Positions 6,594-27,267 of a stretch of DNA of 46,302 bases are shown here, piece by piece (position 1 is the stretch's first letter; the number at the start of each line of letters is the position of its first letter). A program made the translations under genes and the position numbers. The notes below the pieces were generated by a model. It ran no database searches, had not been told where the DNA came from, and worked only from the letters and a program-made list of their open reading frames with translations. Source of the DNA: an uncultured Alphaproteobacteria bacterium (GTDB taxonomy: Bacteria > Pseudomonadota > Alphaproteobacteria > Rickettsiales > UBA1997). The DNA lies in contig CAIRMX010000004.1 in assembly GCA_903879805.1 (NCBI GenBank), forward strand, positions 1 to 46,302. Reading direction: 5' to 3'.

Positions 6594-8168
6594 ATGACCT
6601 TATTTCGCTCCGTATTTACCATCTCTTTCTACATCTCAATCTCACGCATTCTCGGCTTCATTCGCGACATCACAATCGCGCAATATATTGGCGTTAGCAT
6701 GCTCTCCGACGCCTTTTTTGCTGCCTTTCGCTTGCCTAACTTTTTCCGCCGCATCTTTGCTGAAGGAGCTTTCAACTCAGCCTTCGTACCGATTTTTATC
6801 GAGAAACTGCAAGACCAAAAAAATGGCAAAGCAGCCGAAGGCGCCGAGCTACTTTTCGTGCGCAATATTTTCTCGCTGCTCTTTTACGCCTTGCTAGTTT
6901 TCACCATCATCTTCCAACTTTTCATGCCATTTTTCATGAAAGTTTTATTTCCCGGTTTCTTCACCGACCCAGAAAAATCAACCCTTCTCATCACACTTTC
7001 GCGCATCACAATTTTTTATCTGATCTTCATTTCACTAGTTTCACTTTGCTCGGGCATTCTTAATTCAATTAGCAAATTCGCGGTTCCGGCCTCAGCCCCA
7101 ATCGTTTTGAATTTAACATTAATTGCTTCAGTTTTTGCTTTTGGCGCCATGGTTCCAAACTACGCCTACGCACTTTCTTGGGGCGTTTTTCTTGCCGGCA
7201 TTTTACAATTTATTTGGGTCTTTTTCTTCACGGTTAAATCAGGATTTTTGCTTTATCCGCAAATGCCAAAATTTAATACCGACATGAAAAAGTTTTTCAA
7301 AAAACTAATTCCCGGCATCATCGGCGGCAACGTGATGCAGATTAACCTGTTGGTTGATTCAATCTTTGCCAGCATGATTGCGGGGGCTGTTTCTTACCTC
7401 TATTACGCCGACCGCATCAACCAATTGCCTCTCGCCATGATTGGCATTGCGATAGGTGTGGCGCTTCTTCCCGCTCTTTCACGCAAAATCAAAGCTGACG
7501 ATGGAGATGGTGCAATAAAGTTACAAAACATGGCGCTAGAAGTTGGCTTGATCTTGGTAATCCCCGCCACTCTAGCTTTGACAGTGCTTGCCTATCCAAT
7601 CATCTCGTCACTTTTTGAGCGCGGAAAATTTACTTCCGACGAAAGTTTCTTCGTTGCCAAAGCTCTGATGTTTTACTCTTTCGGTCTTCCCTCTTACGTT
7701 TTAGTAAAAGTGATGGAACCCGCATTCTTCTCGCGCGGCGACACTAAAACCCCAATGAAAATCGCTTTTGTTTGCTTGATTACTAACGGCGCTTTTAACG
7801 CAATTTTCTTCTACATGGGCTTTGGTTATGTCGGCATTGTAATGGCTTCAATCATCTCAACTTACCTCAATTTAACCATCCTCACCACCACTCTAATTCG
7901 CCAAAAACATTTCTATTTTGAAAAAGATTTCGCCAAAAAAATGGTGTTGATTTTAATCCCATCATTTTTGATGGCAGCCGCGCTATTTATGATGCGCGAG
8001 CATTTTGCTCAAAGCGAATCTTTAGGAAAAATTGCTGAACTCACCATCATGATTTTAGTCGGATTACTTGTTTACGGTGTTGCTGCATTCTTCTCTGGCA
8101 GTCTAAATATTTTGCTGAAATCGAATCTCTTAAAAAGGAAAAAAAATGACATTGTCCCAAGCGCTTAG
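6594..8168 (+). CDS. murJ: Lipid II flippase MurJ
   Basis: SRILGFIRD, AFRLPNFFRRIFAEGAF, YYADRINQLP. Confidence 0.97.
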   Translation: MTLFRSVFTISFYISISRILGFIRDITIAQYIGVSMLSDAFFAAFRLPNFFRRIFAEGAFNSAFVPIFIEKLQDQKNGKAAEGAELLFVRNIFSLLFYALLVFTIIFQLFMPFFMKVLFPGFFTDPEKSTLLITLSRITIFYLIFISLVSLCSGILNSISKFAVPASAPIVLNLTLIASVFAFGAMVPNYAYALSWGVFLAGILQFIWVFFFTVKSGFLLYPQMPKFNTDMKKFFKKLIPGIIGGNVMQINLLVDSIFASMIAGAVSYLYYADRINQLPLAMIGIAIGVALLPALSRKIKADDGDGAIKLQNMALEVGLILVIPATLALTVLAYPIISSLFERGKFTSDESFFVAKALMFYSFGLPSYVLVKVMEPAFFSRGDTKTPMKIAFVCLITNGAFNAIFFYMGFGYVGIVMASIISTYLNLTILTTTLIRQKHFYFEKDFAKKMVLILIPSFLMAAALFMMREHFAQSESLGKIAELTIMILVGLLVYGVAAFFSGSLNILLKSNLLKRKKNDIVPSA

Positions 8169-9210
8169 CGCCACACCCTGCCCTTATTTTGAGGCATGTG
8201 GTGGTTGTGATTTCCTAGATTTGAGTGAAGAAAATTATCAGGAACTTAAGAAAAAAAACCTCGGAGAAAATTATAAAGATGCTAGCTGGATCTGGGTTGG
8301 ACCGCATTCGCGCCGCAAAATAAATCTACAAATCGGTGCTAAAAATCAGATCGGATTTTTCGCTAAAAAATCGAAAGACTTAGCTGAAATTGAAAGTTGC
8401 TTTGTTTCTGAAAAAGCAATTTCTGATTTGATTTTGCCGCTGAAAAATTTGCTAAAAACTCAAGATCAAAATCTTTTCACCCAAATCTCCGTCACCTTAT
8501 TTGACAATGGTTTAGACCTAATTTTTGCTGCAAAGAAAGAGTTAAATTTTTCTCAAACTCAAAAACTTTTGCATTTTGGCCAAGAAAAAAATCTCAATAT
8601 TTCTTACCGCATTAAAGATCACGTCGCACCGATTTTTATCACGCGCAAAAACCAAATTTTTTATCCTGATTTTAAAGTTGATTTAGGTTCTGAAATATTC
8701 ATTCAAGCAACCAAGACGGGACTCGCCAGCATCACCAAAATCATTCGCGATTTTTTAGGGCAGAATAAAAACATCAAAAACATCGTCGATATTTACGCTG
8801 GTTTTGGCGCTTATTCTTTTGCCACAATTGATTTAGCAAAATCGATTTTTGCTTTTGAGGGTGACGAAAAAATGGTCAATGCCATCAATAAAAACGCTGC
8901 TGCAAACGGCATTGCCAATAAATTAAAAGCTGAAGTTTGCGACTTGTTTGCTAGCCCCGTTCACAAACGCGATCTCAATCATTTTGATTTAGCCATCATC
9001 AATCCACCAAGAAACGGTGCCTCGCCGCAGATTTTAGAAATTTCAAAATCTTTGCTAAAAAATGTCATTTACGTTTCTTGCAATCCCGAAAGTTTTGCTC
9101 GTGATTCTAAGATTCTAATTGACTCGGGATTTAAGATTACAAATCTCACTGCCCTTGACCAGTTTTACTCTACCAAGCATTTAGAGCTTATCGCAATTTT
9201 TCAAAAATAG
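8146..9210 (+). CDS. 23S rRNA m5U methyltransferase, RlmD/RlmC family, no TRAM domain
   Basis: CPYFEACGGC Fe-S motif, FIQA, NPPRNG, YVSCNP, DQF...HLE. Confidence 0.85.
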   Translation: MTLSQALSATPCPYFEACGGCDFLDLSEENYQELKKKNLGENYKDASWIWVGPHSRRKINLQIGAKNQIGFFAKKSKDLAEIESCFVSEKAISDLILPLKNLLKTQDQNLFTQISVTLFDNGLDLIFAAKKELNFSQTQKLLHFGQEKNLNISYRIKDHVAPIFITRKNQIFYPDFKVDLGSEIFIQATKTGLASITKIIRDFLGQNKNIKNIVDIYAGFGAYSFATIDLAKSIFAFEGDEKMVNAINKNAAANGIANKLKAEVCDLFASPVHKRDLNHFDLAIINPPRNGASPQILEISKSLLKNVIYVSCNPESFARDSKILIDSGFKITNLTALDQFYSTKHLELIAIFQK

Positions 9211-9214
9211 ATTT

Positions 9215-10984
9215 ATGAAAAAAAATACTACTCCGCCGAACTGGGATTTATCTGACTTTTACGCCTCGCCAAAAGATAAAAAAATCGCTGCCGAAATTAA
9301 AAAAATTGCTGAGGACACTAAAAAATTCACCAAAGAATTTTGTGGAAAAATTGGAAAACTCAGCGCGCCGCAACTTTTTTTAGCGATTAAAAAATTTGAA
9401 GAACTCTGCGAAAAAATCGGCAAAATTTCCAGCTATTCACAATTGCTCTACGCTTCTGATTTATCGAATCAGACCAATGTTGCCTTCCATCAAAACACTT
9501 CTGAGACCTTAAGCAAATTTGAATCAGAATTAATTTTCTTCTCACTCGAATTAAACAAAATCGACGACAAAAAATTAGCGCTTTTGCTGAAAAATTCTGA
9601 CTTAAAAAAATACCAACCTTTCATTCGCGACACTCGCGCTTTCAAAAAATATCAGCTCTCAGAAGAGCTAGAAAAATTCTCACTCGAAAAAGGTCTAACC
9701 GGCCGCAACGCCTTCGTGCGCTTGTTTGATGAGACAGTTAATAATTTAAAATTTTCTTACCGCGGCAAGATTTTGAACTCGCAAGAAATCTTCGATTTAG
9801 TTTCAAATGCCGACGAAAAAGTTAGAAAAGACGCCGCCAAAGCAATTGGCAAAACCTTCGAAGAAAATTCCAAAATTTTCGCCTTCATCACCAATATTTT
9901 AGCCAAAGATAAAGCAGTTGAAGATACTTGGCGTGGCTTTGCCAAACCAATATCCTCGCGCAATCTCAGCAATTTTGTTGAAGATGAAGTGGTTGATGTT
10001 TTGGTTAAAAAAGTGAAAGAAAATTACGGCAAGATTTCGCATCGTTACTACAAAATTAAGGCAAAAACTTTAGGCAAAAAAATCCTAAATCACTGGGATC
10101 GCAACGCCCCTTTAAGCAAAGCAGAAAATAAAACCATTCCTTGGGAAGAGGCTAAATCTCTGGTTCTATCAGCCTATGGCGAGTTCTCACCCGCGATGGA
10201 AAAAATTGCGGAGATCTTTTTTAAGAAAAATTGGATCGATGCTAAAGTTAAGAGCGGCAAAGATTCTGGCGCCTTCTCACATTCTTGCGTGCCCTCAGTT
10301 CACCCTTACATTTTAATGAATTACCAAGGCAAAGTTCGCGACGTGATGACTTTAGCACACGAGCTTGGTCACGGCGTGCATCAATATCTGGCGCGCTCTC
10401 AGGGCTATTTCATGAGCGGTACACCTTTGACTTTGGCAGAAACCGCATCAGTTTTTGGCGAACAATTAACCTTCCAAAAAATTCTTAAAAACGAGAAAGA
10501 TTCAAAAAAGAAAAAACTAATTATCGCCAATAAAGTTGAAGACATGATTAGCACTGTGGTGCGTCAAATCGCCTTTTTAGAATTTGAAAGAAAAGTGCAC
10601 GAAGCCAGAAAAGACGGGGAAATTCCGCTGGAGAAAATCTGCGAATTTTGGATGGAAGTGCAAAAAGAAAGTCTGGGCGCTGCCTTCAAATTTGACCAAG
10701 AATATCGCTTCTTTTGGAGCTACATTCCTCACTTCATCCACTCACCTTTTTACGTTTACGCCTACGCTTTTGGTGACTGTTTAGTCAATTCACTTTACGG
10801 CGTTTACAAGTCTGGTAAAATTAAAAACTTCGAAGAAAAATATTTGGCGATGCTGACGGGCGGGGGCACCAAAGGCCACAAAGAAATGTTAGAACCATTT
10901 GGACTTTCGATCAAAGATCCAAAATTTTGGCAAGCGGGACTTGATGTAATCATCGGCTACATCGATCAATTGGAGAAGATTTAA
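9215..10984 (+). CDS. pepF: M3B oligoendopeptidase F
   Basis: WDLSDFY start, HPYILMNY, HELGHGVH zinc motif, AETAS, PHF...PFYVYAY. Confidence 0.93.
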   Translation: MKKNTTPPNWDLSDFYASPKDKKIAAEIKKIAEDTKKFTKEFCGKIGKLSAPQLFLAIKKFEELCEKIGKISSYSQLLYASDLSNQTNVAFHQNTSETLSKFESELIFFSLELNKIDDKKLALLLKNSDLKKYQPFIRDTRAFKKYQLSEELEKFSLEKGLTGRNAFVRLFDETVNNLKFSYRGKILNSQEIFDLVSNADEKVRKDAAKAIGKTFEENSKIFAFITNILAKDKAVEDTWRGFAKPISSRNLSNFVEDEVVDVLVKKVKENYGKISHRYYKIKAKTLGKKILNHWDRNAPLSKAENKTIPWEEAKSLVLSAYGEFSPAMEKIAEIFFKKNWIDAKVKSGKDSGAFSHSCVPSVHPYILMNYQGKVRDVMTLAHELGHGVHQYLARSQGYFMSGTPLTLAETASVFGEQLTFQKILKNEKDSKKKKLIIANKVEDMISTVVRQIAFLEFERKVHEARKDGEIPLEKICEFWMEVQKESLGAAFKFDQEYRFFWSYIPHFIHSPFYVYAYAFGDCLVNSLYGVYKSGKIKNFEEKYLAMLTGGGTKGHKEMLEPFGLSIKDPKFWQAGLDVIIGYIDQLEKI

Positions 10985-11599
10985 ATGATTAATCCGGTTT
11001 ACGCAGAAACTTTATTCAATCACTTGTACGGAAATATTAATGGTTACGGAATTTCAACCGCAGCGCGAGCAAGTTCTGGGCTTGATACTGAAAAATTACT
11101 TTACGGCGAATTACCTTTTCAAACTTGGAAAGACATTATTGAGCGCGCCAATCCCAAAAAAGATGGTGTGTTTTTTGACTTGGGATCGGGCACGGGACGC
11201 GTCGTAATTGCTTCATATTTGCTTGGCGAATTTCAAAAATGCCTTGGTGTTGAACTTCTTAAAGGTTTACACGACAAGGCTTGCGAGGTGAAGACAGAAT
11301 TTGAAAAAAATATTAAACCGCAAATCGAAACTCACGTTGCGGGGCGCGAATTAAATTTTTTCTGCAATGATATTTTTGCAATCGATCTGCGAGAAGCTGA
11401 TTTTTTGTTCATGAATCACCCTTTCAAAGAGAGTGATATTTTTAATAAACTTGAAGAAAAAATTTTGGACGAATTAAAAGCAGGAAGTAAGATTGTTACA
11501 ACCATCCGTTCACTAAAGAATCCGCGTTTCAAAAACCTTGGAAACCAAACTTACAAATTTAGCTGGGGTGATTCTACAGCACATTTTTTCGAGACGTAA
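10985..11599 (+). CDS. DOT1-like class I SAM-dependent (protein-lysine) methyltransferase
   Basis: LYGE, VFFDLGSGTGRVV, GVEL, ADFLFMN..F, LKAGSKIVT and FSWG occur in the motif order of the DOT1 catalytic core. Confidence 0.75.
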   Translation: MINPVYAETLFNHLYGNINGYGISTAARASSGLDTEKLLYGELPFQTWKDIIERANPKKDGVFFDLGSGTGRVVIASYLLGEFQKCLGVELLKGLHDKACEVKTEFEKNIKPQIETHVAGRELNFFCNDIFAIDLREADFLFMNHPFKESDIFNKLEEKILDELKAGSKIVTTIRSLKNPRFKNLGNQTYKFSWGDSTAHFFET

Positions 11600-11602
11600 A
11601 TT

Positions 11603-11896
11603 ATGAAAAAGAAAATAGTTAAAGCCGCACCAAAAAAAGTTATCAAAAAGAAAGTGGTTAAAGCCGCGCCAGTTAAAGCTAAAAAGGCCGCGGTAAAAAA
11701 AGTTTTAGCAAAAAAAATCGTTAAAAAAACACCACAAAAAGCAGTGGCTGAAGTTAAGACCGCTAAAAGAAAACCGGTTTCAATCAGAATTCTTACCAGC
11801 GACATCGAAACCATTAAAATCAAGGCTGCAAAGCTTGGCGTTCCTTATCAAACCTACATTAATATTCTTATTCATCGCGACGCGGTGAGTGAGTAA
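11603..11896 (+). CDS. Histone H1-like Lys/Ala/Val-rich protein with C-terminal CopG-antitoxin-like (RHH) DNA-binding domain
   Basis: 23 Lys and one acidic residue in the first 57 aa (KKKxVKAAP repeats); C-terminus VSIRI...IKxKAAKLGVPYQTYINILIH fits the CopG/BrnA-type RHH pattern. Confidence 0.75.
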   Translation: MKKKIVKAAPKKVIKKKVVKAAPVKAKKAAVKKVLAKKIVKKTPQKAVAEVKTAKRKPVSIRILTSDIETIKIKAAKLGVPYQTYINILIHRDAVSE

Positions 11897-11912
11897 TTCT
11901 ACAAAGGCACCA

Positions 11913-12347
11913 ATGGCGACAGAAATAAATTTTTACCAAGCTGACGAAACCATCATAAAGTCTCTCGCCCCTTTGCTTTTAAAGGTTTTGGATGAGAAGA
12001 AAAAGGCGTTTATTTTCTGTCAAAATCCTGCGCAAATTAAGGCGATTGACGATTCTTTGTGGAGTTACGGACGTAATAAATTCATTCCCCACATTACAAT
12101 TTCTGATAAGGATTTTGTCTTGGAACGTCAGCCGATTTTGATTTCAGATAAAGAAGAAAATTCTAACAAAGCTGATTATTTGGTTTTTTTAGATGTGCCA
12201 TCATCTGGCTTTTTATCTAGCTTTGAGAGGGTCTTTTATTTTTTTGAAGAGCAGAATTTTGCAGCTGCAGAAGGGATCGCGAAGAAAGTTAAACCGAAAA
12301 ATTGCTACAAGAAACTAGATGGGAAATGGGTGAAGTTTAACTTCTAA
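11913..12347 (+). CDS. holC: DNA polymerase III chi subunit
   Basis: INFYQ, LLLKVL, IDDSLWSY...FIPH, QPILIS, FERV. ATG 11913 preferred over GTG 11889. Confidence 0.88.
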   Translation: MATEINFYQADETIIKSLAPLLLKVLDEKKKAFIFCQNPAQIKAIDDSLWSYGRNKFIPHITISDKDFVLERQPILISDKEENSNKADYLVFLDVPSSGFLSSFERVFYFFEEQNFAAAEGIAKKVKPKNCYKKLDGKWVKFNF

Positions 12348-12503: not shown

Positions 12504-12542
12504 AAAAAAGGCTCCTCTGAAATTTTCAGAGGAGCCTTTTTT
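12504..12542. terminator. Bidirectional intrinsic terminator
   Basis: AAAAAAGGCTCCTCTGAAA-TTTTCAGAGGAGCCTTTTTT hairpin with U-tracts on both strands, between convergent units. Confidence 0.9.
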
Positions 12543-24461: not shown

Positions 24462-25364
24462 CTAAACCGCCGGAGCATTTTTCGATTTGAAAAAATTCTG
24501 CTTCGAAAGATTCAAAATAAATTTCATGCTCACCAAAATCGTCACGCATCCGATGATTTTGCTTGCTGTAATTTCCTCTCCCAAAAACATCGCACCGAAA
24601 ATTGTGCCAAAAACCGGAATCAACAAAACCACGCTCACCGCCACTCGCGGGCCTTCTTCGGTGATTAATTTGAAATATAAAACATAGGCGATGCCGGTGC
24701 AAAGCAGGCCCAAGCCTAGTAGAGAAGAAGCAACTTTTGCGTCGATCAAGCTGAAATCGGCAAAAAATAAACTTGGCGAAAGCAGTAAAGCCACCGACAA
24801 AACGCTGCCCGCAGCCATGGTCATGGCATCAATATTTTTGCATTTGGCGTTAATGTATAAAGAGGCTCCGGCGTAAGAGGCGGTGGCAACTAAAATGGCG
24901 ATTACGGCAAAGCTGTAAGACCAAGTGATGTCTGCGGTGATGCAACCGTCGAAGTAAGTGATGACGATGCCAACAAGGCCAAACACCACGCCCAAAATTG
25001 CGTTTTTATCGACGAAACGTTTGAGGAAAAATATTGAAATCAAAACTTCAAACATCGGCACCGTGCCATCAAGAATAGCGGCGATTCCGCTATCAACGGC
25101 GCGCGAGGCCAGAGCAAATAAAGTGAAAGGAAAAGCCGAATTAAAAAAGCCAACAATGGCGTAATGTTTAAAATTTTTGGGGAGAAAAACTTTTTTTCTT
25201 TGAATCAAGCAAATGCCGTAAAGCAAAGCGCCGCCAAGCGCCAAACGCGAGAAGGCCACAAAATATGGAGATAACTCTGCAGCAGAAATTTTCGTAAAAA
25301 TCGCAAAGCTCGACCAAGTAATTCCAAGAACAATTAGAATGAATAAGTTGCTGTTTTTGTTCAT
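24462..25364 (-). CDS. EamA/DMT family transporter
   Basis: About ten TMs in two EamA repeats; WSSFA, FSRL, PVFG...LGE. Confidence 0.9.
   Translation of the reverse strand: MNKNSNLFILIVLGITWSSFAIFTKISAAELSPYFVAFSRLALGGALLYGICLIQRKKVFLPKNFKHYAIVGFFNSAFPFTLFALASRAVDSGIAAILDGTVPMFEVLISIFFLKRFVDKNAILGVVFGLVGIVITYFDGCITADITWSYSFAVIAILVATASYAGASLYINAKCKNIDAMTMAAGSVLSVALLLSPSLFFADFSLIDAKVASSLLGLGLLCTGIAYVLYFKLITEEGPRVAVSVVLLIPVFGTIFGAMFLGEEITASKIIGCVTILVSMKFILNLSKQNFFKSKNAPAV

Positions 25365-25602: not shown

Positions 25603-27267
<1,665 letters not shown>

Follow-up and report, generated by a model that had tools for sequence, protein, structure and literature searches.

The window analysed here is a stretch of 46,302 nucleotides (contig CAIRMX010000004.1 of assembly GCA_903879805.1) from an uncultured, Rickettsia-related lake bacterium, and it carries two small adjoining genes: one encodes a 204-amino-acid (aa) protein of the DOT1 family of lysine methyltransferases, and the other a 97-aa protein with an N-terminal tail rich in lysine. 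A sequence-only reading of the window had proposed that the two form a chromatin writer-substrate pair, in which the enzyme methylates a histone-H1-like neighbour and so tunes nucleoid compaction. To our knowledge, discussion of DOT1 homologues in bacteria has until now treated them as host-directed effectors, with LpDot1 as the one characterised case. By examining the families of both proteins, their distribution among related genomes and the genes that surround their relatives, we tentatively hypothesize that the enzyme acts inside the bacterium as a loosely specific methyltransferase, with its neighbour as one possible substrate. Genomes are cited below by handles beginning with G (loci by L, contigs by C), the window's own genome being G000 (1.88 Mb, 95.6% complete).

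Both genes lie in a tightly packed same-strand run (Table 1), whose flanking genes, read earlier as pepF and holC, are indeed identified by Peptidase_M3 and DNA_pol3_chi matches. The pepF stop codon (TAA, 10982-10984) abuts the ATG of the enzyme gene without a spacer, and the enzyme's own stop (TAA, 11597-11599) is followed by ATT and then by the ATG of the 97-aa gene at 11603, which is the 3-nt gap already described. The longest holC open reading frame (ORF) begins with GTG at 11889 and overlaps the stop of the 97-aa ORF; because the Pfam HolC match starts at ORF residue 11, the ATG at 11913 may be the true start. No gene junction from pepF to holC holds a hairpin comparable in strength to the one that closes the run, and the genes for the enzyme and the 97-aa protein are predicted to share an operon. 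A promoter scan was uninformative (12 sites, 15.0 expected). Metatranscriptomes labelled lake water or freshwater (four runs, from four studies) gave contigs that match at 99% or above over 11624-12232, 11710-12072, 11672-11872 and 11657-11936, all but the third running from the 97-aa gene across into holC, and run X3 also yields a fifth contig, over pepF (10653-10835). Such contigs attest presence in RNA libraries only, giving neither a transcript start nor an expression ranking, and DNA may contaminate them; no RNA contig covers the enzyme gene, and this lack of cover carries no meaning.

Table 1. Genes and features of the run in the window, and Lys-tailed CsoR/RcnR-family genes behind DOT1-like genes at related loci
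Feature	Position	Strand	Evidence and remarks
murJ (lipid II flippase)	6594..8168	+	Pfam MurJ 382.7 bits; opens the tightly packed same-strand run
RlmD/TrmA-family m5U RNA methyltransferase	8146..9210	+	Pfam tRNA_U5-meth_tr 49.1 bits; syntenic in related loci
pepF (M3 oligoendopeptidase F)	9215..10984	+	Pfam Peptidase_M3 159.5 bits, Peptidase_M3_N 58.4 bits
204-aa DOT1-family enzyme	10985..11599	+	Pfam DOT1; standalone catalytic core
Lys/Val/Ala/Pro-rich N-terminal tail of the 97-aa protein (residues 1-58)	11603..11776	+	composition, net charge
Ribbon-helix-helix domain of the 97-aa protein, CopG_antitoxin/BrnA type, including stop codon	11777..11896	+	Pfam PF12441
holC (DNA polymerase III chi)	11889..12347	+	Pfam DNA_pol3_chi 75.4 bits
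Terminator-like hairpin closing the run	12504..12542	+	18-bp stem with 7 G-C pairs, then T run
Tailed CsoR/RcnR-family gene after DOT1-like gene	L038:2445-2816	+	
Tailed CsoR/RcnR-family gene after DOT1-like gene	L041:2612-3034	-	
Tailed CsoR/RcnR-family gene after DOT1-like gene	L037:2691-2993	-	
Tailed CsoR/RcnR-family gene after DOT1-like gene	L045:2747-3055	-	
Tailed CsoR/RcnR-family gene after DOT1-like gene	L052:2766-3077	-	

The assignment of the 204-aa protein to the DOT1 family, first made from the sequence alone, holds well beyond chance: it passes the Pfam profile (PF08123) with E 2.3e-16 and 60.4 bits (cut-off 23), residues 39-183 aligning to positions 22-166 of 205. The core motifs are all present and in order (Y40-G-E42, D65-L-G-S-G-T-G71, G88-V-E90, F142-M-N144-H-P-F147, L164-K-A-G-S-K-I-V171 and S193-W194); in a 40-sequence family alignment Y40, G41, D65, G67, G69, G71, G88 and G195 are invariant, and E42, E90 and W194 at least 90% conserved. 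Motif I for S-adenosylmethionine (SAM), D65-G71, and G88-V-E90 align to DOT1L, Dot1p and LpDot1. RNA and small-molecule methyltransferases are absent from the best matches: in the PDB all 20 distinct sequences at E <= 0.001 are DOT1- or aKMT4-type protein-lysine methyltransferases, led by 9NE1 (LpDot1; E 3.5e-24, 88.8 bits, residues 9-197 of 204) and including yeast Dot1p (E about 4e-7), aKMT4 (5FA8, 5.5e-5) and human DOT1L (about 5e-4). The phmmer alignment places N144 on the first N of the DOT1L 'VNNF', N241, which we take to be the active-site Asn, and T35 at the position of F131; W194 aligns to the LpDot1 'SWG', the 'SW' Trp of DOT1L presumably being W305 (the alignment to DOT1L ends earlier, at residue 173).

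The enzyme is thus akin to the H3K79 methyltransferases Dot1p and DOT1L in Pfam family and SAM-binding core, with N144 aligned to N241 of DOT1L, and differs from them in that it ends nine residues past SWG and has T35 for F131, no loop 273-286, no helix 319-331 and no flanking domains, so that a DOT1L-like nucleosomal H3K79 mechanism is not expected of it. Judged by its sequence, it is a minimal, putatively SAM-dependent protein-lysine methyltransferase of the DOT1 family, made up of the catalytic core only. It scores far below membership in the aKMT4 equivalog NCBIfam NF041081 (26.2 bits, cut-off 200), and PADLOC returned for the locus a sole, generic SAM-domain match to mad2 (33.6 bits, profile 281-395 of 492). 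Tandem duplications of the DOT1-like gene are seen at three loci (L032:2987-4213 in G008, L005:1498-2738 in G015 and L033:3100-4332 in G011), and G047 has three DOT1 matches. The second tandem copies are 51-57% identical to the window enzyme; first copies have isoelectric points (pI) of 5.9-7.0 and are mostly mildly acidic.

In the window's genus the enzyme is present in 38 of 44 genomes, or 38 of 40 if those with assembly gaps or masked sequence are not counted. Among the six genomes lacking a match, G017 has 8000 masked bases and no pepF match, in G024 a contig end cuts pepF, and G051 and G052 (76% complete) have no full pepF (in G051 a 22-residue fragment match only); the gene is truly absent after pepF only in G018 and G016. 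Where the order of genes was examined, 30 of 32 genomes have pepF immediately 5' of the enzyme gene (a count that excludes six enzyme-bearing genomes; the exceptions are G001 and G007), murJ precedes the rlmD-like gene and pepF at many of the related loci, and the enzyme has diverged much as its rlmD-like neighbour has (55% vs 59% in G012, 64% vs 58% in G009). In G016 the place of the DOT1-like gene after pepF is taken by a 541-aa ORF (L138:4024-5649, +) with a Lys-rich N-terminal extension of about 35 residues, which reads like argininosuccinate lyase, a name taken from the sequence alone. DOT1-like genes adjoin peptidase genes in three lineages, namely M3 pepF here (9215-10984), M48 in a metagenome-assembled genome (MAG) labelled Rickettsiales (L121:3585-4910) and M20 in loci of the candidate phyla radiation (CPR) and of gammaproteobacteria (L071:3649-5028, L106:3707-5071), an adjacency that may be due to chance.

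Beyond the genus, a DOT1 profile search across the order (201 genomes of 127 genera, with matches of at least 48 bits counted as strong) found strong matches only in this genus and in G166 and G121, that is in 3 of 127 genera, and none in four genomes of three sister genera, which points to acquisition by transfer. A whole-library search gave 2462 representatives at E <= 0.001, mostly of about 200 aa, with named relatives in CPR, Legionellales, Coxiellaceae, Chlamydiae, Myxococcota, Acidobacteriota, Actinomycetota and other Rickettsiales-labelled MAGs, as well as giant-virus contigs at 22-31% identity; the spread over CPR, Myxococcota, Acidobacteriota and Actinomycetota suggests that an internal bacterial role is common in the family. 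In a 97-row FastTree phylogeny the window enzyme falls in a starred clade of 28 rows with two Rickettsiales-labelled MAGs and unnamed metagenome proteins, apart from a starred 24-row Legionellales/Coxiellaceae clade that holds the LpDot1 orthologues, and it is therefore a relative of LpDot1 and not its orthologue. That it belongs to a new, non-Legionella clade of bacterial DOT1 proteins appears well founded on these sequence comparisons.

Of the first 57 residues of the 97-aa protein 23 are Lys, as had been counted, 11 Ala, 10 Val and 3 Pro, and a single one is acidic (pI 11.3 there, 10.65 overall); the 58-residue tail has a net charge of about +23. Residues 49-92 match the ribbon-helix-helix (RHH) family CopG_antitoxin (PF12441) marginally, at 29.1 bits against a cut-off of 28, with homologues reaching 38.2; the NCBIfam BrnA match is below threshold, and the 'GVPYQTYINILIH' RHH core is invariant in 22 aligned homologues, canonical members included. 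Where canonical members have an N-terminal 'MKKKIKLDAYEREIE...', the window form carries the Lys/Val/Ala/Pro tail, and their 'KLDxYExEI' region is absent from it. The proposed likeness to histone H1 stands as regards composition, the protein being very basic and probably able to bind DNA, but not as regards descent: homology to H1 or Hc1 was rejected, with Pfam HC2 at 11.1 bits (cut-off 40) and NCBIfam hist_H1_lk_Burk at 9.7 (cut-off 80), so that what the tail shares with Hc1/Hc2 and the Burkholderia H1-like proteins is a Lys/Ala/Pro low-complexity composition and not a family. A 90-aa antisense ORF over the tail region (11551-11823, -), a Phe/Leu/Thr-rich mirror of the low-complexity strand, is most likely not a gene.

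Canonical RHH genes in the genus often stand beside a gene of about 90-115 aa, and all six such neighbours scanned match BrnT_toxin and/or DUF4258, at 18.6-24.3 bits and under the cut-offs. The window protein resembles these BrnA/CopG antitoxins of BrnTA modules in its C-terminal domain and core, and differs from them in its low-complexity N-terminal region and in having no BrnT partner: it is the single RHH protein of the CopG_antitoxin/BrnA family in G000, where tblastn with six BrnT/DUF4258-like proteins (E <= 0.01) found no BrnT-like gene. The net charge of the N-terminal part is +19 to +23 in RHH proteins encoded directly after the enzyme (n=6), +12 to +14 in orphans far from it (n=4) and +6 to +12 in toxin-paired or other forms (n=10). 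Canonical forms occur 0.4-1 kb downstream of the enzyme gene in G012, G009 and G045, and a decayed canonical remnant directly follows it in G011, where an 84-aa ORF after the second DOT1-like copy (L033:2846-3100, -) opens 'AAKNYVAEKKSVTIRIAND', then loses the family sequence, and is apparently a decayed orphan antitoxin gene. The identification of the 97-aa protein as an orphan BrnA/CopG-type RHH protein, whose former toxin-binding N-terminus would now be a lysine tail, is well founded, and a likely history is that a BrnTA module near the enzyme gene lost its toxin, the orphan antitoxin being remodelled into a Lys-tailed DNA binder. An EamA transporter gene (24462-25364, -) and groEL (25603-27246, -) lie 12.5 kb downstream in the window; in G009 and G045 they directly adjoin the RHH and DOT1-like genes, so that in the lineage of the window a rearrangement has moved them apart and left the RHH gene next to that of the enzyme.

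The pair itself is not conserved across the genus, and the adjacency test put forward with the sequence-only reading fails for most of its genomes, the conserved link being that of the enzyme with pepF. A Lys-tailed RHH gene directly follows the enzyme gene in only nine of the 38 enzyme-bearing genomes (G000, G014, G044, G042, G008, G015, G046, G053 and G006); in seven an RHH gene is on another contig, and in 19 none was found with the 97-aa query. However, a second and non-homologous Lys-rich partner occurs at the same place: in G050, G002, G056, G004 and G041 the enzyme gene is followed, on the same strand and after 0-25 nt, by one for a CsoR/RcnR-family protein (PF02583, 63-79 bits; coordinates in Table 1), and all five proteins bear a Lys-rich N-terminal tail of some 17-58 residues. 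Two CsoR paralogues encoded elsewhere, on contig 27 of G002 (in a metal-efflux context) and contig 11 of G000, are untailed. The L037 protein (G056) reads 'KTRAEIL' without Cys where that of L038 (G050) reads 'KYCTEIL' with it, so that metal sensing may have been lost in the former. In G000, N-terminal lysine tails are found in 3 of 1971 ORFs (at least 14 Lys in 40 residues) or 24 of 1971 (at least 6 in 20), criteria that are rough and together span 0.15-1.2% of its ORFs. In a pepF tree the RHH-tailed and CsoR-tailed groups are sister clades (SH-like approximate likelihood ratio test, SH-aLRT, 93), with G006 falling elsewhere on weak support. The recurrence of a Lys-rich partner of another fold beside the enzyme is the main evidence for a functional link between enzyme and neighbour; the exact pair is neither obligate nor dedicated, the enzyme predating both tailed neighbours in the genus and occurring in more of its genomes than either.

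Lysine tails are also a habit of the lineage. The RpoD (sigma-70) of G000 has a tail of 187 residues before its first Pfam domain (contig C97:2075-4516, -, which is L139:576-3017) and its CdnL/CarD one of 173 (C43:20023-21213, -, which is L140:524-1714); both extensions are rich in Lys, Ala, Pro and Val, and CdnL has a long acidic C-terminal tail as well. Short Lys-rich N-termini are further seen in G000 in an ORF that reads like ArgG (C130:6356) and in two small paralogues (C40:21438 and C101:161). A single HU/IHF-family gene was found in G000 (C126:2699-2968).

On this analysis we favour, at a probability of roughly 0.37, the reading that the 204-aa protein is a loosely specific, internal, aKMT4-like lysine methyltransferase that also modifies its co-expressed Lys-tailed neighbour. 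The enzyme would act inside the bacterium and, as aKMT4 does, mono- or oligo-methylate lysines exposed on basic proteins, with only a loose preference for sequence; one substrate would be the co-expressed Lys-tailed DNA binder, an RHH protein here and a CsoR-family protein in the sister clade, and methylation, by blunting hydrogen bonding and altering the hydration of the tail lysines, might tune DNA affinity or protease sensitivity. As a model for such a role, aKMT4 of Sulfolobus islandicus (PDB 5FA8/5FAD, 5JWJ) is likewise a DOT1-type core, and the part of its description available to us reports that it has no substrate-recognition domains and loosely methylates the chromatin proteins Sul7d and Cren7, among others (PMC4639711); it differs in being archaeal and distant in sequence, and that same part does not describe its substrates as gene neighbours. 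A bacterial precedent is the Chlamydia pneumoniae cpnSET, reported, in the accessible text, to bind and methylate its own H1-like Hc1, and possibly host histones (PMC3980110); the differences are that cpnSET has the SET fold and not that of DOT1, that Hc1 and Hc2 are not RHH or CsoR proteins, and that no operon pair is described in that text. None of the papers listed by our literature searches, which did not extend to the supplements of the LpDot1 preprint, describes a DOT1-like enzyme coupled to an RHH or CsoR protein with a lysine tail. A stronger form, in which a DOT1-type writer is dedicated to methylating H1-like tails as a chromatin mark, selection having twice favoured a Lys-tailed binder of a different fold (RHH, then CsoR-type) right behind its gene so that the two are produced jointly, and so tunes nucleoid binding or shields the tail from proteolysis, seems unlikely. 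The originally proposed pair is thus partly supported, by the DOT1 enzyme, the basic neighbour and, as new evidence, the CsoR recurrence; it is weakened by the lack of H1 homology, of conserved adjacency and of any tracking of tails with DOT1 genes across the order.

Much in the comparative data weighs against a link between the enzyme and the tail. The enzyme is kept without a Lys-tailed gene behind it in 24 of 38 genomes, among them G020, which lies within the CsoR clade, while in the enzyme-less G018 pepF is directly followed by a retained CsoR-like gene, the tail of its product being short and basic. Since the tailed clades are kin, at most two events can be counted, and both tails may go back to a single 5' segment that was inherited and to which a new domain was joined. 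Local DNA alignment of the tail-coding segments, each against 200 codon shuffles, placed true orthologue tails (G000/G008, G050/G002) no higher than shuffles and only the close pair G000/G042 above them (z 10.5); one of 12 RHH/CsoR pairs (G042/G002) reached z 3.6, equalled by 1 of 200 shuffles, which is unconvincing after 12 tests. The tail DNA is thus too diverged, even between orthologues, and a shared or a convergent origin of the tails is beyond the reach of alignment. Even when encoded far from the enzyme, orphan RHH proteins are more strongly basic than those paired with a toxin, so that the growth of the tail may simply follow the loss of the toxin. In other lineages no small Lys-tailed neighbour of a DOT1-like gene was seen in the 35 of 80 loci inspected, with one exception, a 51-aa ORF with 20% Lys two genes downstream of a DOT1-like gene in a Chlamydiae MAG, and no Lys-rich neighbour accompanies the DOT1-like genes of G166 and G121 or the second copy in G047. 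All 24 genus genomes searched, the enzyme-less G016 and G018 included, have the tails on RpoD and CdnL, and similar tails occur in other families without DOT1 (G036, G033 and G040; G140 for sigma-70), whereas CdnL is untailed in the DOT1-bearing G166 (190 aa) and G121 (193 aa); no correlation between DOT1 and lysine tails was found across the order. The enzyme is only mildly acidic (net charge -3), and the second tandem copies, the ones beside the RHH gene, are basic (pI 8.8-9.5). Enzyme charge was rejected as a sign of co-adaptation, since group ranges overlap (means of -2.3 for 10 copies by Lys-tailed RHH genes, including the basic second copies, -5.5 for five by CsoR genes and -2.8 for 19 others).

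The enzyme may methylate the neighbour's tail or host proteins, and we have considered both. It is only slightly less probable that the enzyme is instead a host-directed effector, which a type IV system would deliver to a protist and which would there methylate host proteins, probably nuclear and not histones, the Lys-tailed neighbour being unrelated and adjacent through rearrangement. LpDot1, the closest solved and characterised relative, is a protein of Legionella pneumophila that, in the part of the preprint available, shows no activity on histones and methylates the host splicing factor SFPQ at K518; it resembles the DOT1 catalytic domain only, has Ala at the F131 position and lacks loop 273-286 and helix 319-331, the features whose importance for action on nucleosomes is pointed out there (bioRxiv 10.64898/2026.01.11.698932). 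The window enzyme aligns with it over its full length, with DxGxGxG and SWG, a similarly small residue (T35) at F131 and neither nucleosome loop nor C-terminal helix, and is like it kept across a whole genus of host-associated bacteria. Six Legionella loci (L109, L113, L117, L119, L127 and L131) have a same-strand HU/IHF-family gene directly 3' of the LpDot1 orthologue (L119:3732-4040, the one such neighbour scanned, matches Pfam Bac_DNA_binding at 104.8 bits), Legionella being a second lineage with a DOT1-like gene beside a nucleoid-protein gene, and a 188-aa reverse-strand ORF also lies there. The earlier case against an effector, built on the lack of a secretion extension and on housekeeping neighbours, therefore fails, because LpDot1 too is core-only among genes that do not look like effectors; G000, moreover, has two VirB4, one VirD4 and, in 1.88 Mb, 51 Ank_2 matches (in about 25 ORFs, on contigs C75, C91, C116 and many others), gene content that suggests a host-associated lifestyle with secreted ankyrin proteins. 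The lifestyle marker ATP/ADP translocase (PF03219) gave no match, but was uninformative, as its control matched nowhere either. The order-wide distribution that points to transfer, the relatives in Legionellales, Coxiellaceae, Chlamydiae and giant-virus contigs, and the extra copies in G008, G015, G011 and G047, such as some Legionella species also have, agree with an effector; the accessible part of a review describes Legionella DOT1 proteins as clustering with those of protists, giant viruses and amoeba-associated bacteria and argues for repeated horizontal transfer (PMC10117894). Yet the enzyme stands in a separate clade at 29-33% identity to the Legionella loci, has none of the N-terminal extension seen in Legionellales (204 aa vs ORFs of 235-262 aa), and abuts pepF in an operon of envelope, RNA and replication genes where the Legionella gene precedes an HU/IHF-family gene; many family members are in CPR and free-living phyla, and an effector would leave Lys-tailed neighbours of two unrelated folds as coincidence.

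An internal enzyme with another specific substrate, such as a ribosomal, translation or other housekeeping protein, to which the adjacent Lys-tailed genes would mean nothing, seems rather unlikely. It would suit an enzyme kept at one place after pepF whatever follows, diverging at the pace of the rlmD-like gene and having relatives by peptidase genes in three lineages, and aKMT4 was itself first named an L11 methyltransferase and, in the part of its description available, methylates Rpl11 in vitro (PMC4639711; PDB title 5fa8); but no candidate substrate emerged from the analysis, the two Lys-tailed neighbours would be left unexplained, and a core-only DOT1 enzyme is expected, by analogy with aKMT4, to be loosely specific. 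A toxin-antitoxin-like pair, with the methyltransferase as toxin and the RHH protein as antitoxin in an echo of the BrnT-BrnA gene order, is very improbable and was rejected: although the RHH domain is of the CopG_antitoxin/BrnA family and canonical members in the genus sit beside BrnT/DUF4258-like genes, the enzyme is without any RHH match in half of the genomes that bear it, it is vertically syntenic with pepF, the toxin-binding N-terminus of the RHH protein is gone, and the generic mad2 match is all that PADLOC offers. What probability remains goes to none of the readings named here.

If the enzyme does methylate its own Lys-tailed neighbour, as in the reading we favour, this would provide the first demonstration of a DOT1-type writer that works on a nucleoid or transcription protein of a bacterium, and it would link the archaeal aKMT4 with Cren7 and Sul7d, the chlamydial report of cpnSET and Hc1, and the histone methylation of eukaryotes. 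Should it prove to be an effector instead, it would stand for a second clade of DOT1 effectors, outside Legionella and carried by uncultured symbionts from lakes. Whatever the substrate, the locus illustrates how an antitoxin without its toxin was probably turned into a Lys-tailed DNA binder, in a lineage that puts H1-like tails on sigma-70, CdnL and other proteins.

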